Notes under the pieces: generated by a model
The model's database searches: none
What the model was told of the DNA's origin: nothing
Seen by the model: the letters and a program-made list of their open reading frames with translations, nothing else
NCBI GenBank assembly: GCA_963842525.1
Contig: CAWJGT010000009.1
Location: 1,216,001 to 1,280,000 of the forward strand
DNA: 64,000 nucleotides
Reading direction: 5' to 3'
Origin: an uncultured Holophagales bacterium
GTDB taxonomy: Bacteria > Acidobacteriota > Thermoanaerobaculia > Multivoradales > UBA5704
In this document: positions 8,604-64,000 of the stretch, one piece after another
Layout: the number at the start of each line of letters is the position of its first letter
How positions within the stretch are numbered: the stretch's first letter is position 1
Position numbers and translations under genes: made by a program

Positions 8604-8629
8604 GCTTTTTCAAGGAGCCAAGAACGATC

Positions 8630-9734: not shown

Positions 9735-9774
9735 AGCGCTTGCCTGAAACCCTGGTGCATGCTATGCATACTCG

Positions 9775-10355: not shown

Positions 10356-10420
10356 GCGACCTTTCCGGCCGGATCGGTCCCATCCCACCGCCGGAATTCC
10401 CCTTTCCCGGCCGTCTGGTC

Positions 10421-10850
10421 CCGCGGGACCGGCAAGGTTCCCCGCGGGGTCATGGACATTCCCCGCGGTGGCGCGCAGCGGTGCCGCGGGACCGGCGGTG
10501 TTCGCCGCGGGGCCATGGACACTGCCCGCGGTGGCGCGCAGCGGTGCCGCGGGACCGGCGGTGCTCGCCGCGGTGCCATGGACACTGCCCGCGGTGGCGC
10601 GCAGTGGTGCCGTGGGACCGGCAGTGTTCGCCGCGGTGCCATGGACACTGCCCGCGGTGGCGCGCAGTGGTGCCGCGGGACCGGCAGTGTTCGCCGCGGT
10701 GCCATGGACACTCGCCGCGGTGGCGCGCAGTGGTGCTGTGGGACCGGCGGTGTTCGCCGCGGTGCCATGGACACTCGCCGCGGTGGCGCACAGCGGTGCC
10801 GCGGGACCGGCAGTGTTCGCCGCGGTGCCATGGACACTGCCCGCGGTGGC
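10421..10850. repeat. 63-bp tandem repeat (~7 copies) built of three 21-bp subunits, flanked by an imperfect ~23-bp direct repeat
   Basis: CCGCGG at 10421, 10442, 10463 ... 10841, with variants at ~10610 and ~10736. CCGCCGGAATTCCCC occurs at 10388 and 10854. Confidence 0.92.
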
Positions 10851-10898
10851 CCCCCGCCGGAATTCCCCCTCCCGGCGCTCTGTTATGCTCTGCCGCCT

Positions 10899-12287
10899 AT
10901 GTCGGAGCCCTCCCCCCCGATCCATCGCCCCCGTGTCGGGATGATCAGCCTTGGATGCCCGAAGAACCTCGTCGACAGCGAGGTGATGCTCGGGGAGCTT
11001 GCGCGCCGGGGGTATGAGGTCGTCAACGACCTGGAGAGCGCGGAGACGGTGGTGATCAACACCTGCGCCTTCATCGAGGAGGCCCAGCAGGAGTCGATCG
11101 ATACGATCCTGGAGGTCGTGGGGCGTAAGGGGAAGGGAGTCGAGAAGGTGCTGGTCGCCGGTTGCATGGTCAACCGGTTCGGCGACCAGCTTGCCAGGGA
11201 GATCCCCGAGATCGACGGCTTCGTGGGGCTCGACCAGCTCCGCGACGTGGGCAACGTGGTCCAACTCGGAGGCGGGCCGCCGCTGCCGGCGCCCTCGCAC
11301 CTGGTCTTCGACCACACCGCGCCGCGCATGCTCACCACCCGCGGCTTCGCCTACCTGAAGGTCGCGGAGGGGTGCAACAACCCGTGCACGTTCTGCGCGA
11401 TCCCCATCTGGCGCGGAAAGTTCCGCAGCCGCACGATCGAGGACCTGGTGGCCGAGGCCAAGCGGCTCGAAGAAGGCGGCATCGCCGAGCTGAACCTGAT
11501 CGCCCAGGACACCACCCGCTACGGCGAGGACTTGGGGATGCGCCGCCATGGGCTGCTGCGCCTGGTCGAGGCCCTGCTTGCCGGGACCTCGATCCCCTGG
11601 ATCCGGTTCCTCTACGCCTACCCGACCACGCTCGACGAGGATCTGCTGCGGCTCATGGGCACCGAGGAGCGCTTCTGCTCCTATCTCGACATGCCGCTCC
11701 AGCACAGCCACGGCGACATCCTGTCTGCCATGCGCCGGGGAGGCGATGCCAAGCGCTACCTCCGCCTGCTGGAGCGGGCTCGCGAGCTGGCACCCGATGT
11801 CTTTCTCCGCTCGACCTTCATCGTGGGCTTTCCCGGCGAGACCGAGGAGCATTTCCGCGATCTGCTGGGCTTCGTCCGGCAGGCCCGGTTCGACCACCTG
11901 GGCGGGTTCGCCTACAGCCCGGAGGAGGACACGCCCGGAGCGCAGCTCCCCAACCGGGTGCCGAAGAACGTGGCGCGGCGACGGCTGCGCCAGCTCCTGG
12001 AGGCCCAGAGGCCGATCGCCTTGGAGCAGCGCCGCCGGCTGGTCGGCCAGCGGCTGCGGGTCCTGGTCGAAGGCCCTTGCGAAGAGTCCGAGCACCTGCT
12101 CCAGGGGCGGCATCACGGCATGGCCCCGGAGATCGACGGCCGCCTGCTGATCAACGACGGCTCCGCCCCCGTGGGATCGCTGGTCGAGGTCGAGATCACC
12201 GAGGCCCATGCCGACGACCTCGTCGGGCACATCGTGGGCCCCGAAGGGCTCGCGGGCGTCGAGACCGCATCTGCGGTCACCGTGTAG
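10899..12287 (+). CDS. rimO: Ribosomal protein S12 methylthiotransferase RimO
   Basis: SLGCPKNLVDSE, INTCAFI, radical SAM motif EGCNNPCTFC, FIVGFPGET, APEIDG TRAM domain; TGTTATGCT extended -10-like motif at 10881. Confidence 0.95.
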   Translation: MSEPSPPIHRPRVGMISLGCPKNLVDSEVMLGELARRGYEVVNDLESAETVVINTCAFIEEAQQESIDTILEVVGRKGKGVEKVLVAGCMVNRFGDQLAREIPEIDGFVGLDQLRDVGNVVQLGGGPPLPAPSHLVFDHTAPRMLTTRGFAYLKVAEGCNNPCTFCAIPIWRGKFRSRTIEDLVAEAKRLEEGGIAELNLIAQDTTRYGEDLGMRRHGLLRLVEALLAGTSIPWIRFLYAYPTTLDEDLLRLMGTEERFCSYLDMPLQHSHGDILSAMRRGGDAKRYLRLLERARELAPDVFLRSTFIVGFPGETEEHFRDLLGFVRQARFDHLGGFAYSPEEDTPGAQLPNRVPKNVARRRLRQLLEAQRPIALEQRRRLVGQRLRVLVEGPCEESEHLLQGRHHGMAPEIDGRLLINDGSAPVGSLVEVEITEAHADDLVGHIVGPEGLAGVETASAVTV

Positions 12288-42182: not shown

Positions 42183-43124
42183 GTGACAAGGCCGGCGAAG
42201 CGGGCTCTCTGGGCGTTGGCGATCCTGGCCGTGGGCGCAGCCGTGGCGCTCGCAGCGGTCTACTACACCCGCCCGCTCGACGTCCTCTCCTGGTACCACC
42301 GGAGGGCCCTCTCGCGGGCCGGCCTGAAGGAGGAGTGGGTTCCAGCCCCTGGCGGGCAGCTCGCGGTCTGGACCGGCGGCCGGGGGAAGACCCTCGTCCT
42401 CGTCCACACCTTGAGCGACCACGCCGGCACCTGGCACGCGGTCGTCCCCGAGCTGCTCCAGCACTATCGTCTGCTGCTCCTCGATCTCCCCGGGCACCGC
42501 GACAGCGCGCCGCGGCAGGGGGAGCTGACCCTCCGTGGCGAGCTCGACGGCCTCGCCGCTGCGGTCCGGGAGCGCGGCGGGCAGGATCCCGTCGTCCTGG
42601 TGGGCAACGGGGTCGGAGGGTGGCTGGCTCTCAGCTACGCCCGGGAGCATCCGGAGAGGGTCGAGCGCCTGGTGCTGGTCAACAGCGTCGGGCTCTCGTT
42701 CGACCTCGGGGAGATCGCCCTCGTGCCCAGGGACAGGGAGGAGGCGCGGCGCTTCGTGGACGCCCTGTACGGTCCGGACACGCCGCCGACACCGGACTTC
42801 ATCCTGGACGATGTGGTCCGGAAGAGCCGGAGGAACCCCTTCACGCGGCTGCTGGCCAATCTGCGCAGCACCGACATGCTGGACGACCGCCTGACCGAGA
42901 TCCGCGTCCCCGCCGACCTGATCTGGGGCGAGGCGGACGGGATCGTGACGCGCGACGTGACACGGCGCCTGCTCGACGGCCTGCCGGGTGCCCACCTGCA
43001 CACCCTCCCGCGGTGTGGCCATCTCCCGCAGCAGGAATGTCCGGAGGCCTTCCTGAAGACCCTCCGGGACCTCCTCGGCTCGCCGCCGCCGGCGCTGCCC
43101 GCGCCGTCCTCATCTTTTCCTTGA
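42183..43124 (+). CDS. Exported alpha/beta hydrolase-fold protein
   Basis: Signal/TM N-terminus, DLPGH, GNGVGG at the nucleophile elbow, WGEAD, CGHLPQ. Confidence 0.82.
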   Translation: MTRPAKRALWALAILAVGAAVALAAVYYTRPLDVLSWYHRRALSRAGLKEEWVPAPGGQLAVWTGGRGKTLVLVHTLSDHAGTWHAVVPELLQHYRLLLLDLPGHRDSAPRQGELTLRGELDGLAAAVRERGGQDPVVLVGNGVGGWLALSYAREHPERVERLVLVNSVGLSFDLGEIALVPRDREEARRFVDALYGPDTPPTPDFILDDVVRKSRRNPFTRLLANLRSTDMLDDRLTEIRVPADLIWGEADGIVTRDVTRRLLDGLPGAHLHTLPRCGHLPQQECPEAFLKTLRDLLGSPPPALPAPSSSFP

Positions 43125-43181
43125 AGATCTGAAATAGATCGGCGGGCCGGATCACTCCTTTTAGAGAGGAGGGTTCCCACC

Positions 43182-43436
43182 GTGAGGCACTCGATCTCGA
43201 AAGACGTCCTCGACCGGTTCGCTCTCGGCCACGCCACTCCCCAGGAGAGGAAGGCCATTGCCGTCCACCTCCTCCACGGCTGTGACATCTGTGCCAAGAC
43301 GTTGCGGGCCGTGGCCTGGCCTGGGGCAGCGAAACGCGACCGGATCTCCGCCCGGGATGAACCCGAGAGCCCTCCGGGCCGTATGAAGAGAGGGAGCGGA
43401 CGAAATAGAACCTCGTCCGGCGTCACTCCAAGGTGA
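43182..43436 (+). CDS. Small protein with an H-x-C-x2-C (zf-HC2/anti-sigma-like) N-terminus
   Basis: HSISKDVLDRFALG...IAVHLLHGCDIC; GGAGG RBS. Confidence 0.5.
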   Translation: MRHSISKDVLDRFALGHATPQERKAIAVHLLHGCDICAKTLRAVAWPGAAKRDRISARDEPESPPGRMKRGSGRNRTSSGVTPR

Positions 43437-43484
43437 GGGGATGAGCGCGCCGTCCGCGTTCATCCTGGCAAGGAGGTAAGCACC

Positions 43485-43772
43485 GTGGCACAGCGAATTG
43501 CGGAACCCGGCCTGGATCGTTGGTCGGCAGGGTTTGCCCTGCGTGAGGAGAGCCCGATCATCGTCGCCCATCTCGCGGAGGGATGCCCATCCTGCACCGC
43601 GGGGCTCGAAGTGTTCCACCAGGTCGACGCGCCGGACCCGGCGCGCCAGGCCGTCCTCGAGCTCTTCGAGCGCGAGCTCCTCTCGACCCTCCAGGCGTCG
43701 GGCAGCTCCGTGCAGGCGCTCCACGCCGCCCTGGCGGGGATCGCGCTGAGCGGCGAAAAGCGCGCCGATTAG
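43485..43772 (+). CDS. Small protein with a zf-HC2-like motif
   Basis: IVAHLAEGCPSC; AAGGAGG RBS. Confidence 0.5.
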   Translation: MAQRIAEPGLDRWSAGFALREESPIIVAHLAEGCPSCTAGLEVFHQVDAPDPARQAVLELFERELLSTLQASGSSVQALHAALAGIALSGEKRAD

Positions 43773-43786
43773 ACCTACCCTCCTGT

Positions 43787-43830
43787 CCCTCTCCCTGCCG
43801 CCTCGCGCGAGGCAGGGAGAGGGGCTTTGT
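43787..43830 (+). terminator. 13-bp stem hairpin (terminator-like or REP-like)
   Basis: CCCTCTCCCTGCC...GGCAGGGAGAGGG followed by GCTTTGT. Confidence 0.5.
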
Positions 43831-43877
43831 CGGACATCCGCAGCAAAGTCAGCTCCTCTCGCTCCTCTCCCTTTGTG

Positions 43878-43906
43878 TTGACGCTACAGGTGTTTCCCTA
43901 TAGCAT
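43878..43906 (+). promoter_or_regulatory. Sigma70-type promoter upstream of the Thr/Cys-repeat gene
   Basis: TTGACG-N17-TAGCAT. Confidence 0.55.
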
Positions 43907-44073
43907 CTGAACAACACTTGAATAACGTGTTCTGAGCCGGATATGCAAATACGAGCACAAGCGTACCCGAGCACTCAGCCCTCGGTCCGTTCGCCTCCAT
44001 GACGGCTTTCCTCTTGGTGCTCCGATCCCAGCCCTCGACGAGACCAACCACCATTTCTCATAGGGGATGAATC

Positions 44074-45612
44074 GTGAATCCATTTACCCGGTTTGTGCAG
44101 GGCCCGCTGACTCAGGACCTGTGTAGCGGGGGGGCCGTCACGGCCGGCGGCCCCACAGTCTGCGGCGGCATCCGGACTTGCGGCGGCTGTCCTGGCGGCG
44201 AGATCACCGCCGCATCGCTTTGTGACATCGTGACCTGCGGCGGCCCCACAGCCTGTGGCGGCATCCGCACCTGCGGCCAGCTCACCTGCGGCGGGCCCAC
44301 GGAGTGCGGCATCGACACCTGTGGCCGGACCTGCCTCATCACCTGTGGTGGTCCGACCTGGTGCGGCGGCATTCAGACCTGCGGCCAGACGTGCGCCCAG
44401 ACCTGTCAACAGATCACTTGCGGCGGGCAGACCAACTGCGGCGGTGTGCGCACCTGTGGCGAGACCTGCCACCACCTCACCTGCGGCGGGCAGACGAACT
44501 GCGGCGGTGTCCAGACCTGCGGCCAGACCTGCATCCTGATCACCTGCGGCGGCGGGCAGACCAACTGCGGCGGTGTGCGCACTTGCGGCGAGACCTGCCA
44601 GATCACCTGTGGTGTGCCGACGCAGTGCGGTGGTGTGCGCACCTGTGGCGAGACCTGCCAGATCACCTGCGGTGGGCAGACGCAGTGCGGTGGCATCCAG
44701 ACCTGTGGCGAGACCTGCCAGAAGATCACCTGCGGCGGACCGACCGAGTGCGGTGGCATCGAGACCTGCGGCCACACCTGCTCTCCGGCCATCACCTGCG
44801 GCGGCGCGACCGAATGCGGCGGCATCCGGACCTGCGGCGAGACCTGCCAGAAGATCACCTGCGGCGGCGCGACCGAATGCGGTGGCATCCGGACCTGCGG
44901 CCAGACCTGCTCCCCCGAGATCACCTGCGGCGGGCCGACGGAGTGCGGTGGCATCCGGACCTGCGGCCAGACCTGCAATCAGATCACCTGTGGCGGACCG
45001 ACCCAATGCGGCGGCATCCAGACCTGCGGCCATACCTGCTTGCCCGCCATCACCTGCGGCGGACCGACGGAGTGCGGCGGCATCCGGACCTGCGGCCAGA
45101 CCTGCCACCAGATCACCTGTGGCGGACCGACCCAGTGCGGCGGCGTCGAGACCTGCGGCCATACCTGCTCGCCCATGATCACCTGCGGCGGGAAAACCGA
45201 ATGCGGCGGCATCCAGACCTGCGGTCAGACTTGCCAGATGATCACCTGTGGCGGGAAGACGGAGTGCGGCGGCATCGAGACCTGCGGCCGGACCTGCTCT
45301 CCCGCCATTACCTGTGGCGGGAAGACCGAGTGCGGTGGCATCCAGACCTGCGGCGAGACCTGCCAACCGATCACCTGCGGAGGGAAAACGCAGTGTGGCG
45401 GCATTGAGACGTGCGGGCCGGCCTGCCCTCCGGGCACCTTCGGGCCCGAGCATACCTGCGGCATCATCTGCCTCCCCGAGGAGAAGTCCGAAAAGGCCGG
45501 AGGCCCCATCACACAGGGTCCCATGACCCAATGTGCTGGCGTCCAGACCTGCGGCTGCCCCGGAGGTGGCAAAGAGGGCGGCTCGGGCGGCAAGGGGGAG
45601 AAGGGCGCGTGA
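44074..45612 (+). CDS. 512-aa Thr/Cys/Gly repeat protein; putative giant lanthipeptide precursor/substrate
   Basis: About 20 copies of (I/L/V)TCGGxTxCGG(I/V)xTCGxTC plus 1-3 linker residues. Copies differ at synonymous third positions (TGC/TGT, GGC/GGT). First gene of the kinase-lyase-LanC run. Confidence 0.85.
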   Translation: MNPFTRFVQGPLTQDLCSGGAVTAGGPTVCGGIRTCGGCPGGEITAASLCDIVTCGGPTACGGIRTCGQLTCGGPTECGIDTCGRTCLITCGGPTWCGGIQTCGQTCAQTCQQITCGGQTNCGGVRTCGETCHHLTCGGQTNCGGVQTCGQTCILITCGGGQTNCGGVRTCGETCQITCGVPTQCGGVRTCGETCQITCGGQTQCGGIQTCGETCQKITCGGPTECGGIETCGHTCSPAITCGGATECGGIRTCGETCQKITCGGATECGGIRTCGQTCSPEITCGGPTECGGIRTCGQTCNQITCGGPTQCGGIQTCGHTCLPAITCGGPTECGGIRTCGQTCHQITCGGPTQCGGVETCGHTCSPMITCGGKTECGGIQTCGQTCQMITCGGKTECGGIETCGRTCSPAITCGGKTECGGIQTCGETCQPITCGGKTQCGGIETCGPACPPGTFGPEHTCGIICLPEEKSEKAGGPITQGPMTQCAGVQTCGCPGGGKEGGSGGKGEKGA

Positions 45613-45631
45613 TGTAAGCTGACCTGCGATG

Positions 45632-45672
45632 CGGAGGCCCGGTCCCGCACTCTCTGGCGGGGCCGGGCTCCG
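45632..45672 (+). terminator. GC-rich intergenic stem-loop between the precursor and modification genes
   Basis: CGGAG(G)CCCGGTCCCGC-actctctg-GCGGGGCCGGGCTCCG, no U tail. Confidence 0.5.
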
Positions 45673-45701
45673 TCTCCGGGCCTTCGGACATCGAACGAGA
45701 C

Positions 45702-46800
45702 ATGCTGGTCCAACCCGAAAACGTCGTCCATTACCTGGCCGAGCGCCGGCTGCTGACCTTGCAGTCGGTGGTCGAAGGCGACTTCATGGTCTTCGATCAG
45801 TCGAGCCGGAACTACAACCTCAAGGTGCTGCGGCGGAAGTCCCCCGGCTTCTTCATCAAGCAGGTGCGCACCCGCACATCCGCCTACACCCTCACGCTGG
45901 AGCGGGAGGCGAAGTGTTACGAGATGGCGGCGCGCAACCCCCGCTTCGGCGCCATGGCCGCGCTCCTGCCCAGGTGCCACCACTGGGACGCGGCGAGGAC
46001 GATCCTCGTCCTCGAGATGCTTCCCGATGCCGAGAGCCTCTGGGAGCACCATCAGCGGCTGGGCCGGTTCCCGCGCGAGATCGCGGAGCCTCCAGGGAGA
46101 CAAGCTCGGCACCTACCACCGCCAGGCGGAGCTGTTCTTCCCCGCCCTGGAGGAGCTGCACCTGTTCGAGAAAAAGCTCCCCTGGATCCTCTCGATCCAC
46201 GAGACCCATCCGCAGTACCTGAGCCAGATGAGCCAGGGCAACGCCCAGCTCCTGCAGATCCTGCAGGACTATCCCGGGCTCACCCGCGCCCTCGACGCCC
46301 TCAAGCGCTCCTGGGTCTTCCGCGGGCTGATCCACGGCGACATCAAGTGGGAGAACCTCCTCCTGTACCGCGAGCGCCCGGAGGACCCGCCGGACATCCG
46401 GGTCATCGACTGGGAGATGGCCGACCTCGGCGACGAGTGCTGGGACACGGGGGCGATCTTCCAGGCCTACCTGAGCTTCTGGATCTTCATGCTGCCTCTC
46501 AGCCCCACCGTCAGCCTGGAGCAGGCATCGGAGATCTCGCCGTTCAAGGGCGAGGACATGCAGGTGGCCCTGGCCGCCTTCTGGACCCGCTATGCAGCGG
46601 CCCGCGGCTTCGGCCGCGCCACGTCGCGCCGCTACCTCGAACGGTGCATGGCCTGCGCCGCCGCGCGCATGGTCCAGACGGCCTACGAAGGGATCCAGCG
46701 GTCGCCCCAGATCACGCCCCAGGCGCTCTGCCAGCTCCAGATGAGCATGAACATCCTGCGCGATCCGGCCGCTGCCGTCGGCCAGATGGTGGGGCTGTGA
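45702..46800 (+). CDS. Aminoglycoside-phosphotransferase-like kinase (LanK-like); probable +1 error at ~46089
   Basis: SSRNYN, FFIKQ, LIHGDIKWENLL, VIDWEMA. Removing one C in GAGCCTCCAG joins ORFs 45702 and 46027. Confidence 0.85.
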
Positions 46801-46813
46801 GGAGGGCCGCACG

Positions 46814-47881
46814 TTGAGCACGATGGACTGGCAGGAGGCCCTCGACCAGGTCTTCGCGGCCATCCGCATCGAGTCGCCGCACGAGCTGACGTTCGCGGAG
46901 AGGAAATTCGCCGTACCGGCGGCGGCCGCCCCGGCCGGTAATGGCGCGGCGGGTGCGGCTGGTGCGGCGAAGGTGCCGCTGGTGGAGCTGCTCACCGACG
47001 TCCTCTACCGCTATGTCTACAGCCGGCCCTTCAAGCCGCCGCTTCCACCGCCTTCTCCGGACGGCCAGGAGCGCCAGGACTTCAGGCTCGACCCCGAGCT
47101 CAGCGCCGTCCTCTCCGCCGCCAACGCCTCGCGCGACCGCTGGGAGCACGGCTGGACCATCGGACAGATCCACTCCTCCGGCCAGATCACGGCGCAGCGC
47201 GGGAGCCGCTCGCGGTCGCTCTGGCCGGGCCAGTTCCTGAGCAAGGACGGTCCGGGTGCGCGCCCGCGGCCGGGGGCGCAGATCAGCATCTTCTATCCCC
47301 GCGAGTCCACGTCGCTCCAGCGCGGCTTCTACTACTGCTTCGGCGAGACCCCCGAGGACGAGAGCTTCACCCTCGGCCTGGTGCGGATCTACTGGCACGT
47401 CGGGCTCGCCGGGGCGCCGGAGCTGGTGCGGTCGCTCTCCGCGCGGCTCAACTTCTTCCAGGTGCCGTTCCGCATGAAGTGCTCGGTCATGCCCAGCCAG
47501 TACGACCGCACGGACGTGGCGGTCATCTACCTCGCCAAGCGCCTCTTCCCCTTCGTCGCCGACCTGCTCCAGGAGGTCTATCCCGCCGTGCGCCCGCACC
47601 TCGGGCCCGAGGTGCCGTTCTTCACCTGGCGCCTGGCCCCCGGGGTCGGCATCGCCGAGGACCCGGCCAACGGCGAGAGCTTCGGCCAGCACCGCTGCCG
47701 TCTCCTGGCGGAGTGCTGCTGGAGCTGCTTCCTGCGCGGCGATCAGGAAACGGCGTCGCGGCTGGCGGAGCTGCGCGTCGTGGCCGGCGCCCAGGGCACG
47801 GACCCGGAGCGCTTCCACCTCAACGCCGGCTCCCTGGACTGCTACGAGGCGTGCGCGACGGGGGAGGAATCATGGTCATGA
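46814..47881 (+). CDS. HopA1-family protein (LanY-like phospho-Ser/Thr lyase)
   Basis: GFYYCFG, VRIYWH, PFRMK, YDRTDVAVIY, LAPGVGIAEDP..GESFGQHRC. Confidence 0.85.
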   Translation: MSTMDWQEALDQVFAAIRIESPHELTFAERKFAVPAAAAPAGNGAAGAAGAAKVPLVELLTDVLYRYVYSRPFKPPLPPPSPDGQERQDFRLDPELSAVLSAANASRDRWEHGWTIGQIHSSGQITAQRGSRSRSLWPGQFLSKDGPGARPRPGAQISIFYPRESTSLQRGFYYCFGETPEDESFTLGLVRIYWHVGLAGAPELVRSLSARLNFFQVPFRMKCSVMPSQYDRTDVAVIYLAKRLFPFVADLLQEVYPAVRPHLGPEVPFFTWRLAPGVGIAEDPANGESFGQHRCRLLAECCWSCFLRGDQETASRLAELRVVAGAQGTDPERFHLNAGSLDCYEACATGEESWS

Positions 47882-49200
47882 CCGAGACGCCCGCGATGCC
47901 TGGCGGCGCTGCCAGCCCGCAGCCGGCCGCGGAGCACCGGGCGCTCTTCCTGGAGACCGCGGCTTCGCTGGGCGCGCGGATCTGCCGCGACGCGCTGTGG
48001 GGCGACGGCGTCTGCAACTGGATCGGCTTCGCCATGGAGAGCCTGGGCGGGCGCTGGCGGCACGCCCACCGCGCCTATGGCGGCGAGCTCTATGGGGGGA
48101 CGAGCGGCATCGCCCTCTTCCTCGCCCGCCTGCACGCGGTGACCGGCGAGCGCATGTTCAAACGCACCGCACTGGGGGCGATCCGCCATGCCCTGGAGCA
48201 CGGCGCAAAAGAGATCGTGCCGACGGCGCGCATCGGCGCCTACAGCGGTTGCACCGGCCTCGCCGACGCAGCTCTCCAGATCGCCGTCCTCCTGGAGGAC
48301 GAGTCGCTGCGGGCGCCGGCCCTGGCTCTCCTGGAGGAAGCGGCGAGCGGCGAGACCGGCCGCAACTTCGACCTGCTGGCGGGCTCTGCCGGAGCGATCC
48401 CGCTGCTGCTGCGGGCCCACGCCGGGCACGAAGGTCAACCGGGGCCGGCTTCCCTGCAAGAGGCGGCGGTGCGCCTGGGCGACGACCTCCTGGCCGCCGC
48501 GGCGCGTGCCGACGACCGCTGGTCCTGGGGAGAATTCGGCATGCCGGGGGCGAAGCAGAAGGACAACCTCCTCGGCTTCTCCCACGGCGCCGGCGGCATC
48601 GGCTGGGCCCTGCTGGAGCTCCACCAGGCCACCGGCGAGGCGCGGTTCCGCGAGGCCGGCGAAGGGGCGTTCCGCCACGAGCGGCACTGGTTCGACCCAG
48701 AGCACGGCAACTGGCCGGACCTGCGGGACCCCGAGGTCTCGGGCGCGGCGGCAGCCTCGGACGTCCCGGCCTTCATGACCGCCTGGTGCCACGGCGCGGC
48801 GGGCCTCGGCTTGTCCCGCCTGCGCGCCTGGGAGCTGTCCGGCGACGAGGAGTGCCGGCGCGAGGCCGAGGTGGCCGTCGACACCACCCTGGAGAACCTC
48901 CGCGGCGGCACGGAGATGAGCCAGACCAACGACTCTCTGTGCCACGGCAGGGGAGGGAACTGCGAGACGCTGATCTACGGCTCCCAGGTCCTGGGCCGTC
49001 CCGAATGGCTGCAACGGGCCGAGGAGATCGGCCTCCGGGAGATCGAGACCTGCGCCGCGCAGCGCCTGCCCTGGCCCTGCGGCACCTACGGCAGCGTCGA
49101 AGTGCCCGGCCTCCTGCTGGGCCTCGCCGGCATCGGCTATTTCTATCTCCGCCTCGCCGACCCGGCCGGCACGCCGTCGGTCCTGATCCCGCTGCCGTAA
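47872..49200 (+). CDS. lanC: Lanthionine synthetase C-like cyclase
   Basis: LYGGTSG, DLLAGSAG, GFSHGAGG, Zn-ligand motifs AWCHG and LCHG, GLLLGLAGIGY; overlaps the upstream gene end. Confidence 0.9.
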   Translation: MVMTETPAMPGGAASPQPAAEHRALFLETAASLGARICRDALWGDGVCNWIGFAMESLGGRWRHAHRAYGGELYGGTSGIALFLARLHAVTGERMFKRTALGAIRHALEHGAKEIVPTARIGAYSGCTGLADAALQIAVLLEDESLRAPALALLEEAASGETGRNFDLLAGSAGAIPLLLRAHAGHEGQPGPASLQEAAVRLGDDLLAAAARADDRWSWGEFGMPGAKQKDNLLGFSHGAGGIGWALLELHQATGEARFREAGEGAFRHERHWFDPEHGNWPDLRDPEVSGAAAASDVPAFMTAWCHGAAGLGLSRLRAWELSGDEECRREAEVAVDTTLENLRGGTEMSQTNDSLCHGRGGNCETLIYGSQVLGRPEWLQRAEEIGLREIETCAAQRLPWPCGTYGSVEVPGLLLGLAGIGYFYLRLADPAGTPSVLIPLP

Positions 49201-49692
49201 CCTTCTTCGTGCATTCCGTTCCAATCGTGCACAACGATTCGGAAGCCGGCGGCGACGATTCGCCCGCATCATCCTGAATCCCGTCTCCGTCTCGCCACTA
49301 TTCGGTCATTCTGAAGGAGCATTCGACCTGTGCTCCCTCACATCAGAGGTTGGCTGTAGGATTCAAGAGAATGTCTCCTGCACATAGGGATCTGAGTCTG
49401 CGCCATTCGCAAACATTCCTGCGCATTCGGGAGCTCCGATGGTGGCATTGGACCTGGGCTCGGCAGCATTGGGATCGGCCGGCGTGTCATTTGTGCCGTG
49501 GTCCCAATGATTGGGAGCTCCTGAAGAAAGATTCCGCTCCCAAAGCGTCGTGCACGGACGTGGCTCGGAATGTTTGGCCTTGCAGCCTGAATAACTACTC
49601 AGCTCGTCGGAAAAATCCGCTTTGCCAGACGAATGGCCGGGAATCCGAAACCGATGCTGCCAGGCACGAGACGAATGGTGCGTCAGGACGAG

Positions 49693-51381
49693 CTAACGCC
49701 TGCCCGCCGAGGTCCGGTTGCGGCTCGGCTTCGGCTTCTTCTTCCGGCGCCGCTTCGCCGCGAGCGCCGCGGTGGCTTCGTCACGGAGAGTCTGCGCCGG
49801 CTCGAAGTCCGGCGCTCCTTCGATCGCCTGCTCGGCGTGCGCCAGAGCGGCCTCAGTGTCTCCGAGATGAAAGAGGCAGAGCCCGACGTTGAACACGGTC
49901 GCCGGATTGGACCCGTAGAGAGCAACCGACTGGCGGAAGAAGGAGAGGGCGTCCTCGTAGCATTGGATTTCCGTGAGCAGCACGCCAAGGTGGAAGGGCA
50001 GGTCGAGCGACTCGCGGATCGGGAAATAGACCCTCCAGATCTCGTGGACCGCGTGGTAGACCTCGACACGGAGGAGGTCCGGTGCCGTGCCCACCTGCTT
50101 CATCAGCGCGGGGAAGCAGCCCAGGAGGATGTTCGAGTCCCAGCCCGACAGGCGCAGCCAAGTCAGGAGCTCTTCCAGAGGGAGCTCTTCGTACCCCCTC
50201 TCGACGCTCTTCTTGAGATCGAAAAAGTCGTCCGGCCCCAGGCGCTCGATCGCATCATCGAAGGCTAGACGGGTCTCCAACAGGCCGCCCGGGGGCGTGC
50301 CGAACAGGCCGGCGACGATGCTCAGGCTGGAGTACAGGTGCGTCGTGCTCAGGAAGTCGCCGCCCTGGTGGACGAACCACCGGCCGAAGGCGTGGTAATT
50401 GACCATCATCGAGAAGCTGCCATGGACCGCCAGGCCCGGCTCGCTACGGCCGGTCAGCAGCTCCTCGCGGCTGAAGCCCTTGTCGCCGGAGAGCAGCAGG
50501 AGCCGGTTGTCCGACAGCCGGGCGAGCTGGCGCGCGCCACGGATGGCAGCGCAGGGGAAGAGAAAGGTCGTGTCGTCCAGGCTCGCCACGTACTCCTGGA
50601 GGATTCGGTCGAGCTCCGGATCGCCATAATAGTCGGCCGGGGCGGGACACTCCTCCCAGGAGACCACGATCCGCCCGAGCATCCCGGAGTCTTCGAGATC
50701 GATCTCTCCCTCCGGCGCGGCGAGCGTCGCCAGGCATTCGAAAAACTTTCCATCGTGGACCGAGAAGACGTCCTGGGGGATGCCGTCGAAGACGTAGTTC
50801 GCCAGAACGATGAGCGGATTGCGCAGCGTTTGCGGCGAGAGGACTTCCCCCGAGCAGGTGAGGCGGATCTCGAAGTCCTCTCCGGCGTCGTAGCGCGCAA
50901 AGTCGAGCACTCCGGATTCGACGAACGACTGGAGGTCCGGATGATTGCGCAGGTGGTCGAGGTTGTTCTCCGTGAAGTCGGTCAGGACATAGCGGACCGG
51001 CACATGGCTCAGCGGCGACCGGCCGAGCAGGTCAAGGAAGCGGTTGAGGAACAGGTACCCGAAGCGGCCGGCCCCGCAGCCGAGCTCGACGATGTAGACC
51101 GGATGCCGGAGGTCGAGCGGCGCGAACGAGCCCCGCTGCGGAGACGTCGTCCCCGAGCAGTCACGCAGCCAGCCGAGGACCACCTTGGCGTAGGAGTCAG
51201 CGATCCAGCCGTTGCTGGTGATGTAGTGAGGGACCTGCCCCTCGGTCCAGGCCCGGACCCCCTGCACGTCGAAGAACTTCCGCTGGAGCTGCCAGAGGAG
51301 CGACTCGGACAGGCGCTTGCCGTGTTCGAGGACGTGACTGGCGACGACCGTCTCGGCGGGGCCGCTCTCCGGATCAGGCAT
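49693..51381 (-). CDS. SAM-dependent methyltransferase (MidA/NDUFAF7-like) with C-terminal TPR
   Basis: VPHYITSN, VELGCGAGRFG, ANYVFD, HGSFSMMVN; TPR-like C-terminus. Confidence 0.8.
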   Translation of the reverse strand: MPDPESGPAETVVASHVLEHGKRLSESLLWQLQRKFFDVQGVRAWTEGQVPHYITSNGWIADSYAKVVLGWLRDCSGTTSPQRGSFAPLDLRHPVYIVELGCGAGRFGYLFLNRFLDLLGRSPLSHVPVRYVLTDFTENNLDHLRNHPDLQSFVESGVLDFARYDAGEDFEIRLTCSGEVLSPQTLRNPLIVLANYVFDGIPQDVFSVHDGKFFECLATLAAPEGEIDLEDSGMLGRIVVSWEECPAPADYYGDPELDRILQEYVASLDDTTFLFPCAAIRGARQLARLSDNRLLLLSGDKGFSREELLTGRSEPGLAVHGSFSMMVNYHAFGRWFVHQGGDFLSTTHLYSSLSIVAGLFGTPPGGLLETRLAFDDAIERLGPDDFFDLKKSVERGYEELPLEELLTWLRLSGWDSNILLGCFPALMKQVGTAPDLLRVEVYHAVHEIWRVYFPIRESLDLPFHLGVLLTEIQCYEDALSFFRQSVALYGSNPATVFNVGLCLFHLGDTEAALAHAEQAIEGAPDFEPAQTLRDEATAALAAKRRRKKKPKPSRNRTSAGRR

Positions 51382-51785
51382 GGGCTCAGCGTCTACGAAG
51401 TCTCGTCGCAATGCCTAGGATGGCTTGCAGCGTAGCACAGCTTGGGCACGCACTCGTCGCGTGAGCGGAGGAGCGGCTCCCCGGGGCCCCAGACCGGACC
51501 GCTCCTCATCAGCGCGTACATCGTCTGTCAAAGAACCACGACGGCGATCGCCAGAGGCATTCAGCCTCACCCGAGATCGATCTCAGGTCACCTCGGATCG
51601 ATCGAGAAAGCCCTGGATCGATCCACGGTCCTCCGACAAGCATCCAGATCCGCTGCGATACGCAAAGGTCCGCCTGGGTCGATCGGCGCTCGCCCCGCAG
51701 GGGCATCCCGGGCTCCCTGGATCGATCCAGCCTCACCCGATCAGCATCCAGCGTCACCCGATAGCCATTTGCCGGTCGAGCCTGA

Positions 51786-52502
51786 TCAAAGCTGCTTGGG
51801 TTTCTTCTTCTTTTTCTTCTTCTTCGGCCCGTCCCCTGAACTAAAAATCAATCGGCAGAATTCTCCTCCGTTGCGATTGAGAAATAGATAATTGCCATCT
51901 GTGGTTGGTGTTGCGGATATCTCGCTTCCGCTGTCGAACTTGATCGTGTAGCTGGTCTGACCCTTGATGGTGATTTTATTGGGCCAATCGGCCACCGCGC
52001 TGTGAGCCAGGTCTATGTAGGGCGGATCGTTTTGGACGAACGATCCCCTGACCCACTTGGTGCCAATCTTGATCTCAGCACCGACTCCCTTGACCTCCTG
52101 TGCCATTTGGATGGTTTGCCGACCATCTGCTGAAGGTCCAGCGGCCTTCGCTTGGGCTATCCGCCCGACCACTGCCTTCACGTGCGGTGCCAGGACAGGT
52201 CCTCGGAAAGTGCCAGCCATTCCCTGGGTGCTTTTCGCTTGGACGGTCCGCGTCAGCGCGCTCTGCACATGCGGTGCAAGAGGTAACACCTCAGCAGGCG
52301 CCTTAAGTTGAGTGACTACGCTGGCGGTCCTGGGTGGGACCGGGACCGACTTTGGCGCCGTTGGAGTAGACCGGATGGTCGAAGGCGGCTCTGCCGGCAT
52401 CTTCGCTTGAGCCGCCCTCAGGACGACCGCCTGCACATGCGCTGCCGGAACCCGAGCCGGGACGGTGGAGGGCGGCGGCGGCAACGTCGGCTTCTGGGGC
52501 AT
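51786..52502 (-). CDS. Hypothetical protein with a Pro/Ala-rich repeat N-terminus and Lys-rich tail
   Basis: AAGGAGG RBS; repeated A(A/P)HV(Q/K) and QAK/QLK motifs, then TIQMA and an AT-richer domain. Confidence 0.6.
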   Translation of the reverse strand: MPQKPTLPPPPSTVPARVPAAHVQAVVLRAAQAKMPAEPPSTIRSTPTAPKSVPVPPRTASVVTQLKAPAEVLPLAPHVQSALTRTVQAKSTQGMAGTFRGPVLAPHVKAVVGRIAQAKAAGPSADGRQTIQMAQEVKGVGAEIKIGTKWVRGSFVQNDPPYIDLAHSAVADWPNKITIKGQTSYTIKFDSGSEISATPTTDGNYLFLNRNGGEFCRLIFSSGDGPKKKKKKKKPKQL

Positions 52503-52867
52503 GGGCGCCTCCTTCAACCGTGGGCGAACTGCGGGCTTTCGGGCCTCTCGTCTCGCGGCCTTGTGGATTTCAGCGACTAGTGTAGCTCCAAATCCCCATG
52601 CCGGACAAGCTTTCCTCGGCAAAACACCCGGGCGCACCTATCCGGCGGAGCTTGCGGCGGAAACCCCGGGCGCCATTTCCGCGTACTCCTCGGCAAGGGG
52701 GAACAAGCCCATGACCATACAAAGCCATGTTCGCGCCGGCGGCAGCCCTTGGCTGGACTGAGCGTCCCGCTGCGAGGAGGTGAACGCCGATGAAGATGCA
52801 GAGCCATCTTCGTGCCGGTGCCATTCCCTGGGTCGATTGATCCGACGCGGGGCTTACGGCGACGGAG

Positions 52868-52923: not shown

Positions 52924-52986
52924 CGACGGAACGGATGCCGGCCCCGGTTCATCCCGTTCCCTGGCAACGTTTCGAACACCCTGGAG

Positions 52987-55900
52987 CTACGCCGCCGGCC
53001 GCAGCTCCTCTTTCCGTTTCGGTGCCCGTTTCGGCAGCAGCCGCCGGAGCGCGTCCCTGATCCCCTCCACGCCGCGCAGGTCGTCGAAGATCGAATAAAA
53101 GACCGGCGTTGCCACCAGGGTCAGCAACAGCGAGAGGGTCTGGCCGCCGATCACGACCACGGCGATGGCGCGGCGCTCTTCGGCGCCCGGGCCGGTGCCG
53201 AGGGCGAGGGGCAGCATGCCGGCCACCAGTGCGAGGGTGGTCATCAGGATCGGCCGCAGGCGGTCGCGGTTGCCCTGGAGGATGGCCTGGCTGCGCTCCA
53301 TTCCCTGGGATCTGAGATTGTTCATGTGATCGATCTGCAGGATGGCGTTCTTCTTGACCACGCCGAAAAGGACCAGGATCCCCAAGGCTGAGTAGAGGTT
53401 CAGTGTGTTGCCGGTCGCCCAGAGGGAGACGAGGGCGAAGGGGATCGACAGCGGCAGCGAGAGAAGGATGGTCAGCGGGTGGATCAGGCTCTCGAACTGC
53501 GAGGCCAGGATCATGTACATGAAGGCGATCGAGAGCACCAGGGCCCAGACGCAGCTCACGGTAGGTCCGCGCGAGCTCCCGCCCGCGTCCGCCCACCGAG
53601 GTGGAATAGGCCGGGGGCAGGTTCATCCCGTCCACCGCCCTCTGGAGCGCAGCGAGCCGCTCGGCCAGGGCATAGCCGCGGTCCACGCCGCCGCGTACGC
53701 TCACCTGCCGCTGCCGGTCGAGCCGTTCGATCCGCGAGGCAATGGTGGACTCTTCGATCCGCACCAGGCTGTCGAGCCGGACGAGCCCGCCCCGTCCGCT
53801 CGGGACAGCGAGGCGCTGGATCGTCGCCGGGTCGTTGCGCGCTCCTTCAGCCAGCCGGATCGCGACGTCGTAGTCGTCGTTGACCCCGGCGTCGTAAAAC
53901 CGCGAGACGCGCGGGTCGCCGCCCACGAGGAGGCGGAGCGCCGTGGCGATGTCGGTCATCCGGACGTCCAGGTCCGCGGCGCGGGCACGGTCCACCTGAG
54001 CCCGCACCTCGGGCTTGTCGAGCTTGAGCGAGGTATCGATATCGACGAAACCTCCCATGTTGCGGGCGTTCTGGCGCAGCCGGTCGGCGTAGGCATAGAG
54101 CGTGTCGAGGTCGGGCCCGCGCAAGGCGAAATCCACTTCGAAGTTGCCGCCGCCGATGTCGAACCGCGTGGCGTTGCGCAGCACACAGCGCAGGTCCTTG
54201 TGCTTCGTGAGACGGCGCCGCACCTCGTCCATCACGTCGGCCTGCCTGTAGTTGCCGCGGAACGCCTCCAGGGGATCGAGCCGCAGCAGGCCGCGGGCGA
54301 GGCGCCCGAGCGAGAAGGTCCGCTCGCCGTGCGGGGTGAGCCGGACGAAGACGTTGCCCTGGTTGACCGCGCCGAGGAAAGAGGTGCCTGCGGTGGAGAG
54401 GACCATGCGCACGCCGCGGACCTGGCGCAGCTCGGCCTCGACCTCGCGCATGGCATCGTCCATGGAGGCGAGGCTCGTTCCCTCGGGCGCGTTGACGTTC
54501 ATTTCGAATTCGGATTCATCGACCTCGGCGGGCATGTACTCCACAGGGACGAGCCGGTAGAGCGGGACGGTGGCGGCCATCACGACCAGACAGGACACGG
54601 CCACGAGGCCCCGGTGGGCCACGGCCGCCGCCAGCAGCCGCTGGTAGGCGCTGTCGAGCCGGGCGTAGAAGCCGCGCCGGGAGCGCGCCTCTTCGCCGGG
54701 CGTCATGCGCAGCAGGCGCGCGCTCATCATCGGCGTCAGGGTGAAGGAGACGAGCAGGGAGATCAGCACTGCCGCCGCGGCCGTGATGCCGAACTGGAAG
54801 AGGAAGCGCCCGGCGACGCTCGACATGAAGGAGACGGGGATGAAGATCACCACCAGCGAGAAGGTCGTGGCCAGCACGGCGAAGCCGATCTCGGCCGTGG
54901 CCGCGCGCGCCGCCTCGAAGGTGGTCATCCGCTTTTCCTCGACGAAGCGGAAGACGTTTTCCAGCACCACGATGGCGTCGTCGATCACCACGCCGACCAT
55001 GAGCACCAGGGCCAGCATGGTGACGCTGTTGAGGGTGAAATCCAGGGCTTTCATGACGCCGAAGGTGGCGATGACCGAGGCCGGGATGGCCACGGCGGCG
55101 ATGACGGTCGAGCGCCAGCTCCGCATGAAGGCGAGCACCACCAGCGAGGCGAGGATGCTGCCCAGGATCAGGTGGAGGTCGATCTCGTGCAGGGCGGCAT
55201 AGATGTAGCGCGACTGGTCGCGGACGACCCGCAGCTCGATGTCCGCGGGGAGCTCGGTGCGGACCCGTTCCAGGGCCTCCTTGGCCCCCTCGATCACCTC
55301 GACCGTGTTCGCCCCCGACTGCCGCATCACTTCCAGGGTGACGGTCGGCACGCCGTCGAGCCGGACGACCGACCGCTGCTCCTTGGTGCCGTCCTCGGCG
55401 CGGCCGAGGTCGCGGATGCGGATCGGCTGGCCGCGGACCGTGCGGACCACAAGGTCGTCGAAGGCCCGCGGCTCGGTCAGCCGGCCCAGGGTGCGCACGG
55501 TCATTTCGCGCAGGGGGCCGGTGAGGTTGCCGCCGGGCACGCTGCTGTTCTGCCGCACGAGGGCGTCGCGCACCTCGGTGACGGGGATCTGGTAGGCCTC
55601 CAGACGGTCGGGCTCGAGCCAGACGTTGATCGCCCGCTCGAGGCCGCCGGCCAGGCGCACCTCGCCGACGCCCGACGCCCGCTCGACCTGTGGTTTTACG
55701 ACTTTGTCGGCGATCTCGGCGAGCTCCTCGATGGAGCGGGGGCCGGCGACCGCGACGATCAGGGCCGGCGTGACGTCGTTGTTGAACTTGGAGATCTCGG
55801 AAAGGAGAGCATTCTCGGGCAGGTCACCCGCCACGGAGGCCACCCGGTCGCGGACGTCCTCTGTCGCCGCGTCGATGTCGCGGTCGAGGCGGAAGGTGAT

Positions 55901-56179
55901 GAGCGTGAAGGAGACGCCCGCGGCGGAGATCGAGCGCAGCTCCTCGATCCCTGCGACGGTGTTGACCGCCTCCTCGATCTTCTGCGAGACCTCGGTCTCG
56001 ACCTCTTCAGGGGAGGCGCCCGGCAGGAAGATGCGGACGGTGACGGTGGGGAGGTCGACGGCGGGGAAGCGGTCGATGTCGAGCCCGGCATAGCTGGCCG
56101 CGCCGATCACCACCAGCCCAAGGATGAGCATGGCAGCGAAGACCGGCCGGCGGATGCAGATCTCGGCGAGCTTCTGCAC
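52987..56179 (-). CDS. AcrB/AcrD/AcrF family RND efflux permease (probable +1 error at ~53552)
   Basis: [35 protein letters not shown]; ORFs 56179 and 52987 join. Confidence 0.93.
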
Positions 56180-62183: not shown

Positions 62184-63227
62184 TCAAGGCTTGGGGCGCT
62201 TGAGTTTTTTCTTCTCTGGCAGTTTTTTCGCCTCATCTTCGAGCTGCTTGAAGGTGTCGGCCTCCGCCTCGGCTTCGAGTTGGGCACGGCGACGAGCAGC
62301 GAAGCGGTCATACTCCTGCTCTGCGATGGCGTCAGCCTGTTCGCGACTGACTTTGCCGGCGTCGGGCAGGATGGCGCGCTCGTTCAAGCGCAGGAAATCC
62401 TCGAGCCGGGTCTGCCAGGTGTGCAGGAAGATCTGCTTGCGCCGCCGGGCCTGGTCCTCGGCGAAATCGAGAAACATGACGACGATACGGTTCAGCTCGT
62501 TGATCTCGTCCTCGCGCAGGTAGTTCTTGGCCACGGTCACATCGGCCTTGCGGACCACGCCGCTCTTCCACGTTGTCAGCCCCATGTTGGGCTGGGCAGA
62601 GTCGGCCCGCTCGGCGATCAGCTCGGGCGCGGTCTTGCCGGTGGCGGCGAAGTGCAGCTTGTTCTGCACCGTTTGGAAGAAGACCTGCGTCTCCGGCTCG
62701 GAGGGCGAATAGTCGGCTGCCAGCGCAAGGATCTCCCGAACGCGCAGATACACCCGGCGCTCGCTGGCCCGGATGTCGCGGATGCGCTCCTGCAACTCGT
62801 CGAAGTAATCCGTATGTCCCTTGCCCGGCGGATTCTTGAGCCGCTCGTCGTCCAGCGTGAACCCCTTGACGAGATACTCGTTCAAGCGCGCCGTCGCCCA
62901 TTGGCGGAACTGGGTGCCGCGCGGAGACTTCACGCGGTAGCCCACGCCGATGACCACCTCCAGGTTGTAGTGTTGCGTCTCGTAGCTCTTGCCGTCTGCC
63001 GCAGTTATCCGGAATTTCCGGATAACTGCGGCCTCGGACAGCTCACCCTCCGCGAAGATGTTCTGAATGTGCTCGTTGATGGTGCGGACGTCTTTCCTGA
63101 ATAGCTCCGCCATCAGCTTTTGCGTGAGCCAGATGGTGTCATCTTCGAACCGGCACTGGATGCGCGTGCGGCCGTCTTCGGTCTGGTAGAGGATGATGCT
63201 GGTTTGCGGCGCTTCGTTGTCTGGCAT
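62184..63227 (-). CDS. rhuM: RhuM family protein
   Basis: IILYQTEDG, WLTQKLMAELF, VGYRVKSPRGTQFRQWAT, IRDIRASE, VQNKLH, AKNYL. Confidence 0.92.
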   Translation of the reverse strand: MPDNEAPQTSIILYQTEDGRTRIQCRFEDDTIWLTQKLMAELFRKDVRTINEHIQNIFAEGELSEAAVIRKFRITAADGKSYETQHYNLEVVIGVGYRVKSPRGTQFRQWATARLNEYLVKGFTLDDERLKNPPGKGHTDYFDELQERIRDIRASERRVYLRVREILALAADYSPSEPETQVFFQTVQNKLHFAATGKTAPELIAERADSAQPNMGLTTWKSGVVRKADVTVAKNYLREDEINELNRIVVMFLDFAEDQARRRKQIFLHTWQTRLEDFLRLNERAILPDAGKVSREQADAIAEQEYDRFAARRRAQLEAEAEADTFKQLEDEAKKLPEKKKLKRPKP

Positions 63228-63335
63228 GGTCAAAGAATCCCCTGAATCTGGCCCGCCATGCGTTCCTTATAGGGGAGCTTTGTCCCGGCGTCAAGATATT
63301 TGGGAGGGTGTTGCCGGGTGGGGTGGGATCGGGGA

Positions 63336-64000
63336 CTACGCCGCCGGCCGCAGCTCTTCCTTCTTCGGCGCCAGCCGGCGGAAGGCGTCCTTGAGGCCCG
63401 CCACCCCGCGCAGGTCTTCGAAGATCGAATAGAAGACCGGGGTGGCGACCAGGGTCAGCAGCAGCGAGAGGGTCTGGCCGCCGATGACCACCACGGCGAT
63501 GGCGCGGCGCTCCTCGGCGCCCGGGCCGGTGCCGAGGGCGAGCGGCATCATGCCGGCCACCAGCGCGAGGGTGGTCATCAGGATCGGCCGCAGCCGGTCC
63601 CGGTTGGCCTGGAGGATGGCGGCGCCGCGCTCCATCCCTTTCGACCGCAGGCCGTTCATGTGGTCGATCTGCAGGATGGCGTTCTTCTTGACCACGCCGA
63701 AGAGGACCAGGACGCCCAAAGCGGAATAGAGGTTCAGCGTGTTGCCGGTCACCCACAACGAGAAGAAGGCGAAGGGGACGGACAGGGGCAGCGAGATGAG
63801 GATGGTCAGCGGGTGGACCAGGCTCTCGAACTGCGAGGCCAGGATCATGTACATGAAGGCGATCGACAGGGTCAGGGCGAAGAGGAACTCGCGGTAGGTC
63901 CGCGCCAGCTCCCGGCCGCGCCCACCCACGGATGTGGAATAACCCGGCGGCAGGTCCATCTCGGTCACTGCCTGCTGGAGGGCCTCCAGCCGGTCGGCCA
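63336..64000 (-). CDS. RND efflux permease, C-terminal part (5'-partial); paralogue of 52987..56179
   Basis: [42 protein letters not shown]. Confidence 0.9.
   Translation of the reverse strand, partial: ADRLEALQQAVTEMDLPPGYSTSVGGRGRELARTYREFLFALTLSIAFMYMILASQFESLVHPLTILISLPLSVPFAFFSLWVTGNTLNLYSALGVLVLFGVVKKNAILQIDHMNGLRSKGMERGAAILQANRDRLRPILMTTLALVAGMMPLALGTGPGAEERRAIAVVVIGGQTLSLLLTLVATPVFYSIFEDLRGVAGLKDAFRRLAPKKEELRPAA

Follow-up and report, generated by a model that had tools for sequence, protein, structure and literature searches.

A kinase, HopA1 and LanC gene triad with a candidate protein-sized Thr/Cys repeat substrate in an uncultured Holophagales bacterium

In the genome of an uncultured Holophagales bacterium (assembly GCA_963842525.1), a 64,000-nucleotide stretch of contig CAWJGT010000009.1, referred to here as the window, carries four co-oriented and closely spaced genes on its + strand (44074-49200), which encode, in order, a 512-residue Thr/Cys repeat protein, an APH-like kinase, a HopA1-type protein and a LanC cyclase. 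Lanthionine chemistry is familiar from peptides of a few dozen residues, and the question that the locus raises is whether such enzymes act here on a whole protein. An earlier note, made from the sequence alone, had proposed that they do. All four genes lie where it had placed them, and its central claim, that the giant repeat protein is the substrate of the kinase, HopA1 protein and LanC, is supported by the nearly constant linkage of such triads to long Thr/Cys-rich proteins, by the single clade of HopA1 proteins that accompanies the window's type of repeat protein, and by modelled docking. The reading that we favor, at a probability of roughly 0.55, is that the four genes form one operon encoding a split lanthionine synthetase together with its own protein-sized substrate.

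The repeat protein and the three enzymes

The four genes, and the parts of the repeat protein, are as follows.

44074-45612, + strand: precursor-like repeat protein, 512 amino acids (aa), GTG start 9 bases after an AGGGGA ribosome-binding site
44074-44130, + strand: N-terminal motif of the repeat protein, residues 1-19, M-N-P-F-T-x-F-x-Q-G-P-L-T-Q-x-L-C in an alignment of 19 type-1 precursors (defined below); candidate leader or recognition element
44161-45396, + strand: repeat region, residues 30-441, about 18 units CGG[IV]xTCGxTC(x2-3)ITCGGxTx in which 21- and 22-aa units alternate
45397-45609, + strand: C-terminal part, degenerate final repeats followed by a Gly/Lys/Glu-rich tail; AlphaFold2 pLDDT (the predicted value of the local distance difference test) below 50 over residues 444-512
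45702-46800, + strand: APH-type Ser/Thr kinase (LanK-like); PF01636 E 1.7e-7, above the cut-off; two frames, with one extra base at 46089
46814-47881, + strand: HopA1-type phospho-Ser/Thr lyase (LanY-like), 355 aa, with an AGGAGG site ahead of its TTG start; PF17914 E 2.3e-32
47872 or 47878 to 49200, + strand: stand-alone LanC cyclase of the LanM-cyclase type

The intergenic distances are 89 nucleotides (nt) and 13 nt, and the start of the LanC gene overlaps the end of the HopA1 gene.

The repeat protein contains 86 Thr, 86 Cys, 122 Gly and 8 Ser residues, which bears out the giant repeat with about 80 Thr/Cys pairs that had been described. A 29-residue N-terminal part precedes the repeat units. 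Every one of the 15 regular units keeps its four Thr, its four Cys and the Gly residues at positions 2, 3, 8 and 18 unchanged, whereas the residues in between differ. Tandem Repeats Finder gave a period of 63 nt (16.4 copies, 78% matches) as well as one of 129 nt, both of which are explained by the alternation of 21- and 22-residue units. Given that the copies are only about 78-80% alike at the DNA level and that Thr, Cys and Gly are nevertheless invariant, the array must be old and under selection, with no recent expansion. The Cys closest after a Thr is mostly the adjacent residue (there are 59 TC dipeptides), and the Cys closest before a Thr lies 3-5 residues back.

A search of the ESM Atlas gave no usable match for the repeat protein, and no Pfam or NCBIfam family matched it. 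Four matches were returned by a homologue search with the protein, a number that is no measure of family size since candidates were picked by shared words; in metagenome scans P0002 led to three loci and P0003 to none. A long antisense open reading frame (ORF; 43975-45531) was considered as a true gene and ruled out by conservation and by the GC content of third codon positions, which is 0.85 in the + frame versus 0.52 in the antisense ORF.

The APH, HopA1 and LANC_like identities proposed for the other three products were confirmed by hidden Markov model scans, in which PF01636, PF17914 and PF05147 all matched. The HGDIKWEN and DWE motifs of the kinase are invariant in 17 orthologues. In a genome of the same genus (G003) the orthologue is intact, with 365 aa, and matches the LxmK model NF038156 of class V kinases over nearly its full length (positions 24-343 of 347, E 1.5e-20); its score of 73.6 bits, well under the cut-off of 315, makes the kinase a distant LxmK relative and not an equivalog. 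The HopA1-type gene, present in one copy in the host genome, encodes a protein that scores 112.6 bits with PF17914 (cut-off 22.7). Residues R191, K222 and R232 of this lyase are invariant, and a conserved Tyr stands 17 residues after K222 in a consensus of eight sequences; they correspond, by spacing only, to R187, K219, R229 and Y236 of CaoY in the excerpt of PMC9486802.

The LanC product matches PF05147 (E 3.8e-54, 184 bits) and positions 540-932 of TIGR03897 (E 2.9e-82). Its best sequence relative is the LanM cyclase domain of LicM2 (PDB 6st5, E 2.2e-16), with which the GFSHG, WCHG and CHG motifs, and with them the His, Cys and Cys-His residues, align, in keeping with the intact WCHG/CHG motifs ascribed to it. 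Unlike a LanM, the window cyclase is a separate protein of 440 aa with no LanM dehydratase domain.

Linkage of the triad to long Thr/Cys-rich proteins

We asked whether the pairing of repeat protein and enzymes is conserved. Relatives of the HopA1 protein occur in 46 of 300 genomes of the same order (E up to 1e-10, host genome included), and 23 of the 24 loci fetched from that order carry kinase, HopA1 and LanC genes in this sequence. Immediately upstream of 20 of these 23 triads is a Cys/Thr-rich ORF of at least 245 aa; in its place the remaining three carry ORFs that are long and either Thr-rich or of the leader-domain kind. The exception among the 24 loci (L011, G026:C1), a different module from a related family, has a fused HopA1-kinase and no LanC. 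Positions 7455-11514 of that locus (- strand) encode the 712-aa fusion, an ORF that looks ATP-grasp-like by eye and a 334-aa Thr/Glu-rich repeat protein without Cys, and this module may have a graspetide-like multi-repeat substrate.

A scan of one genome per species yielded 186 HopA1 relatives, the best 80 of which were examined, 18 of them already belonging to the same-order set. The full kinase-lyase-LanC triad is present at 78 of these 80 loci, in about nine phyla, and the two misses lie at contig ends. Among the phyla seen are Acidobacteriota, Chloroflexota, Verrucomicrobiota, Gemmatimonadota, Dormibacterota, Bacteroidota, Planctomycetota and Pseudomonadota. Upstream proteins were scored with a filter that accepts an ORF of at least 150 aa, with at least 6% Cys and at least 10% Thr+Ser, ending just before the kinase gene, and a locus was counted if it had at least 1,200 nt of upstream sequence, or a candidate ORF despite less. 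The survey for long TC-repeat ORFs proved positive at 59 of the 69 loci so counted, where an ORF directly upstream of the kinase passes. Five further loci have a homologous upstream protein that falls just under one composition cut-off (being poorer in Cys, Thr or Ser), and the rest comprise one with a 584-aa Thr-rich protein without Cys, one with an 86-aa Thr/Cys repeat and three with nothing.

When the flanking ORFs were clustered by BLAST, the only families common to more than 11 loci were two types of precursor, found at 47 and 19 loci. Each is invariably encoded upstream of the triad and in its orientation, a median of 106 nt away for the first (47 loci) and 90 nt for the second (19 loci). 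As a background, the host genome has 21,579 ORFs that reach 150 aa; the filter accepts 18 of them, and the window protein is alone among these 18 in having at least 10% of Cys as well as of Thr. The pairing of the repeat protein with the triad is not due to chance, and the outcome that the earlier note had named as refuting its claim, homologous triads never linked to TC-repeat proteins, did not occur.

Type 1, the 'TCGG' type to which the window protein belongs, was found at 19 loci from Thermoanaerobaculia and from Blastocatellia/Pyrinomonadaceae. Its members have a conserved N-terminal motif of about 17 residues followed by TCGG-type repeats. The 19 proteins have Thr:Cys ratios of 0.81-1.17 with the median at 1.00, and their Thr and Cys fractions correlate at r = 0.92. 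The HopA1 proteins of type-1 loci form one clade with a Shimodaira-Hasegawa-like approximate likelihood ratio of 100, consisting of 23 rows (20 of type 1, and three whose upstream region is cut off), in a quick tree of which only the type-1 labels were used.

Type 2, a larger type, was found at 47 loci in many phyla, cultured Bradyrhizobium included, and consists of an N-terminal domain of about 110 residues followed by Cys/Pro/Thr(Ser) heptad-like repeats. AlphaFold2 models this leader domain with pLDDT above 90 over residues 20-80, and a Foldseek search of the PDB with the model gave nothing at E <=0.001 (best E 0.15). A profile of the domain matched 2,883 clusters at 50% identity (E up to 0.001), or 1,663 at E up to 1e-10; among the best 150 matches, 131 have at least 60 residues past the domain, and 127 of these 131 pass the Cys/Thr filter. 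Neither type matches a Pfam or NCBIfam family. The precursor-like relatives span 186-1,090 aa, and among close relatives repeat number and unit sequence differ widely.

A proposed pathway and competing explanations

If the repeat protein is a substrate, its conserved N-terminal motif would be a natural candidate for recognition. We modelled a complex of the G003 kinase, HopA1 protein and the N-terminal 50 aa of the precursor, with alignments as input. The model scored 0.75, with 0.00 for the best of three controls, on a measure whose mark was reached by 58 of 80 solved complexes versus 2 of 110 mismatched pairs; runs shared no fewer than 27% of contacts, and the partners had pLDDT values of 42 or more. 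In the model, precursor residues 1-13 and 16-19 contact residues 257-287 and 339-362 of the kinase C-lobe, a stretch that is nearly invariant. The excerpt of PMC9486802 describes recognition of the leader by the kinase in the cacaoidin pathway, and the modelled site parallels the CaoA-leader/CaoK recognition given there. It also describes the APH-like kinase and HopA1-like lyase of class V lanthipeptide and thioamitide pathways as a pair that dehydrates Ser/Thr.

On this basis a pathway can be put forward, in which we infer every chemical step, the ring pattern and the fate and role of the product. The 512-aa protein would be made in excess, a conserved hairpin lying 3' of its gene, and its short N-terminal motif would dock on the C-lobe of the APH-type kinase, itself paired with the HopA1-type lyase. 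The kinase would phosphorylate Thr residues along the repeats, and elimination of the phosphate by the lyase would give dehydrobutyrine. LanC would then add neighboring Cys thiols to form up to 86 methyllanthionine bridges, four per 21- or 22-residue unit; that Thr and Cys are equally numerous agrees with a single bridge for each pair. Most likely the product would stay one densely crosslinked polypeptide, a 'lanthi-protein', and we favor such a whole product because cleavage spacers, a protease and an exporter are not conserved with the module.

Two candidate control elements accompany the genes.

43878-43906, + strand: sigma-70-like promoter, TTGACG, 17 nt, TAGCAT, upstream of the repeat-protein gene
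45631-45673, + strand: GC-rich, stable hairpin separating the precursor gene from the kinase gene; could act as an attenuator or stabilize the mRNA

The promoter is the sole promoter-like site within 43400-49800, and at four orthologous loci TTGACG is invariant and the second hexamer partly kept. The hairpin has a minimum free energy of -53 kcal/mol (z -4.25), and its consensus across 16 type-1 loci has 12 pairs, with compensatory changes in six. The layout resembles the one by which lantibiotic operons maintain a surplus of precursor transcripts. The + strand showed no terminator-like site within or after the operon, and an Rfam scan of 43000-49800 at E up to 0.1 gave no match.

The same enzymes and chemistry could also serve a multi-core precursor, which an unlinked protease would divide into some 18 peptides, 21-22 residues long and bearing four methyllanthionine rings apiece, to be secreted as lanthipeptides. 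Precursors of this kind among the peptides that are made on ribosomes and modified after translation (RiPPs) typically carry tandem near-identical units, much as the window protein does. In three alphaproteobacterial members (L093, L102, L114) the repeats look like cassettes, measure about 30 aa and include a spacer that recurs, and a subtilisin-like peptidase is encoded just downstream at 7 of the 80 loci and near the locus at L058 and L129. However, spacers and a dedicated protease are expected of multi-core precursors, whereas the units of the window protein abut with no spacer or recognizable cleavage motif, no protease or exporter is conserved across the 80 loci or present among the scanned genes flanking the window operon, and the wide variation of repeat number and unit sequence between close relatives also speaks against this reading. 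We consider processing into separate peptides somewhat unlikely.

A different possibility is that the protein stands on its own as a Cys-rich solenoid, held by disulfides or serving to bind metal, ice or a surface, and that the enzymes modify few of its sites or act on another substrate. AlphaFold2 models the unmodified protein as a solenoid of short strands at moderate confidence (pLDDT 70-86 over residues 110-400), which suggests that the repeats may have a fold of their own, and insects have Thr/Cys-rich, beta-helical antifreeze proteins. The motif of the window protein also exists without the enzymes: secreted proteins with the same TCGGxTxCGGxxTC pattern occur at locus L139 with no triad nearby. 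There, 5967-9305 (+ strand) encodes two such proteins in tandem, which have TCGGATSCGG-type repeats and end in a common domain (listed as PF27846), on a contig with archaeal-looking neighbors by eye and no kinase, HopA1 or LanC. Against this, no N-terminal hydrophobic stretch is visible on reading the window protein (no signal-peptide predictor was run), which would make disulfides unlikely, and a Foldseek search of the PDB with the solenoid model found no known fold at E <=0.001 (best E 1.7). The parity of Thr and Cys and the invariance of every one of them fit pairing, the linkage to the triad is nearly universal in this clade, and the N-terminal motif docks on the kinase in the complex model. 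We therefore regard an autonomous solenoid as highly improbable.

Besides the modelled solenoid and the L139 proteins, several observations weigh against the split synthetase with a protein-sized substrate. At L058 (9310-11265, - strand) and L129 (4993-6747, + strand) the protein ahead of a full triad is long, contains 18-24% Thr and has hardly any Cys or none, so that the enzymes need not always make thioethers. To our knowledge, a ring between directly adjacent Thr and Cys in this order is not documented, and the Thr/Cys pairs of the window protein are mostly adjacent; candidate bridge patterns are a forward one from i to i+5/6/7 and one with Cys before Thr, at i-3/4/5. No export route was seen for the product (no signal-peptide predictor was run). 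Lastly, the assembly as it stands gives a broken reading frame for the kinase.

The kinase frameshift, which the earlier note had recognized, was traced to one extra base at 46089, and dropping that base joins both frames into a reading that resembles the intact G003 orthologue. It could mean that the system is dead in this strain, with a real frameshift and a decaying operon: the window sequence does carry the extra base, and no public run with this exact genome was found (none contained more than 23% of sampled words) in which base 46089 could be checked in the genome's own reads. However, the other three genes of the operon are intact, GC at third codon positions is 0.92-0.95 in both kinase halves, and a comparison with assembled contigs of four public runs showed the base to be absent from two soil-metagenome contigs, X1 (151 nt, 1 mismatch) and X2 (3,993 nt), near-identical and related sequences. 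Many other conserved genes of the assembly are likewise split between frames, as indel errors would give. About 7 kb from the operon an AcrB-type resistance-nodulation-division transporter is divided between two frames (52949-56179 / 52987-53559, - strand), with profile positions 2-860 in one ORF and 864-1020 in the other, and at other places in the genome the matches of several LanC and LanB genes fall in neighboring frames, as though these genes had been cut. Since other genes of the assembly are split too, the frameshift is probably an assembly indel and not the mark of a dead system, and we judge true decay of the operon improbable. A programmed frameshift was also considered and dropped, the orthologues being read straight through. 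Contigs of metatranscriptome X19 cover 45701-45979 and 46183-46275 at about 94-97% identity and come from a relative; DNA carry-over is possible there, so that they may not reflect expression.

Known systems and genomic setting

The label 'class V-type' that had been given to the system holds for its dehydratase half, the kinase and lyase, and fails for the presence of LanC and for precursor size. As in the class V LanK/LanY pairs (CaoK-CaoY, LxmK/LxmY, TvaC/TvaD, TsaC/TsaD), an APH-fold kinase and a HopA1-fold lyase are encoded side by side. In the excerpts of PMC9486802 and PMC11186320, characterized class V pathways have no LanC, short precursors (below 110 aa, in contrast to the 512-aa ORF of the window) and a shared LanD-type cysteine decarboxylase (CaoD) for S-(2-aminovinyl)-3-methylcysteine (AviMeCys), and cyclization often has no known enzyme (PMC11186320), whereas the window operon has a LanC. 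Class V pathways cyclize by a kinase-fold LanX or without a known cyclase, and their LanD makes S-(2-aminovinyl)cysteine (AviCys) or AviMeCys; neither LanX nor LanD is in the window operon. The absence of LanD, a protease and an ABC exporter had been pointed out before, and we found no gene for a LanD-type flavoprotein, protease or ABC exporter among the scanned ORFs flanking the operon; PF02441 (LanD-type) matches in the genome are confined to contigs C3 and C11. No second APH (LanX) occurs among the scanned ORFs of the window. Matches to the LanB family PF04738 lie on C3 and at C9:1526001, about 260 kb from the window, and the operon enzymes are separate genes, not a LanM, LanKC or LanL fusion.

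The enzyme set itself has been noticed before. Eyles et al. 2021 noted a HopA1-LanC trio as a possible new lanthionine synthetase (excerpt of PMC8153245), and the window locus has the enzymes of these 'HopA1-LanC' clusters. The precursor search described in that excerpt (RiPPER) was aimed at short peptides, and the CaoY survey, in the excerpt of PMC9486802, took only ORFs below 110 residues, so that long repeat proteins fell outside both. The nearest parallel for the substrate is CrpA/CrpC of Methanococcus voltae (PMC13692751, 2026), where, according to the excerpt, the target is a Cys-rich protein, as opposed to a short peptide, in which an adjacently encoded enzyme installs thioether crosslinks of a RiPP-like kind, such cases being called limited. 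That system is archaeal and makes ranthionine by a radical S-adenosylmethionine enzyme; it has no kinase, lyase or LanC, unlike the window operon. Our literature search, which did not extend to supplementary datasets, found no description of long Thr/Cys repeat substrates or of natural lanthionine-crosslinked proteins.

At this locus the enzyme folds are known ones whose arrangement is new, and the presumed substrate belongs to a class that is also new and very large. With odds a little short of even, we suggest that many soil bacteria make ribosomal poly-(methyl)lanthionine proteins of 250-1,100 residues with tens of thioether rings, using a split kinase/lyase/LanC synthetase that recognizes either a 17-residue motif or a folded domain of about 110 residues, and that these would be a new class of protein material, made by crosslinking, instead of antibiotics of ordinary size. 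Such loci would be missed by genome-mining tools, which seek short ORFs. If the suggestion is right, lanthionine chemistry would extend to whole proteins and yield a new kind of heavily crosslinked protein, and a compact three-enzyme set would be available for placing many thioether staples in a genetically encoded repeat that bears a 17-residue recognition tag. A cultured carrier of the type-2 system, Bradyrhizobium sp. LTSP885 (locus L093), makes the question directly testable.

The host genome comprises 9.95 Mb in 34 contigs, with the window on contig C9, and its closest relatives are soil metagenome-assembled genomes labelled Thermoanaerobaculia, phylum Acidobacteriota. It has 14 LANC_like matches at about 10 places and seven LanB-type matches, on contigs C1, C3, C9, C23 and C25, and the organism seems rich in lanthipeptide-type genes.

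Elsewhere in the window, 158-8603 (+ strand) is a large gene of the hybrid nonribosomal peptide synthetase/polyketide synthase type (2,474 aa; its domains are ketoreductase, thioesterase, two AMP-binding, condensation and carrier), and after it comes a carrier-thioesterase protein; no link to the operon was seen. Just upstream of the operon, 43182-43772 (+ strand) holds two small ORFs of 84 and 95 aa with no Pfam match, each with an H-x3-C-x2-C motif that we take to be of the kind found in anti-sigma factors; they are not conserved upstream of the G003 operon. Convergent with the operon is a gene at 49693-51411 (- strand) for a 572-aa protein with C-terminal tetratricopeptide repeats and a weak methyltransferase-like match, which was not found beside the orthologous G003 operon. 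A 283-aa ORF at 51786-52637 (- strand), of no family, ends in a run of eight Lys, with a Phe run on the opposite strand, and may be a homopolymer-tract artefact. Toward the end of the window (62184-63968, - strand), a RhuM-family gene adjoins a lone C-terminal AcrB-type fragment covering profile positions 838-1020.

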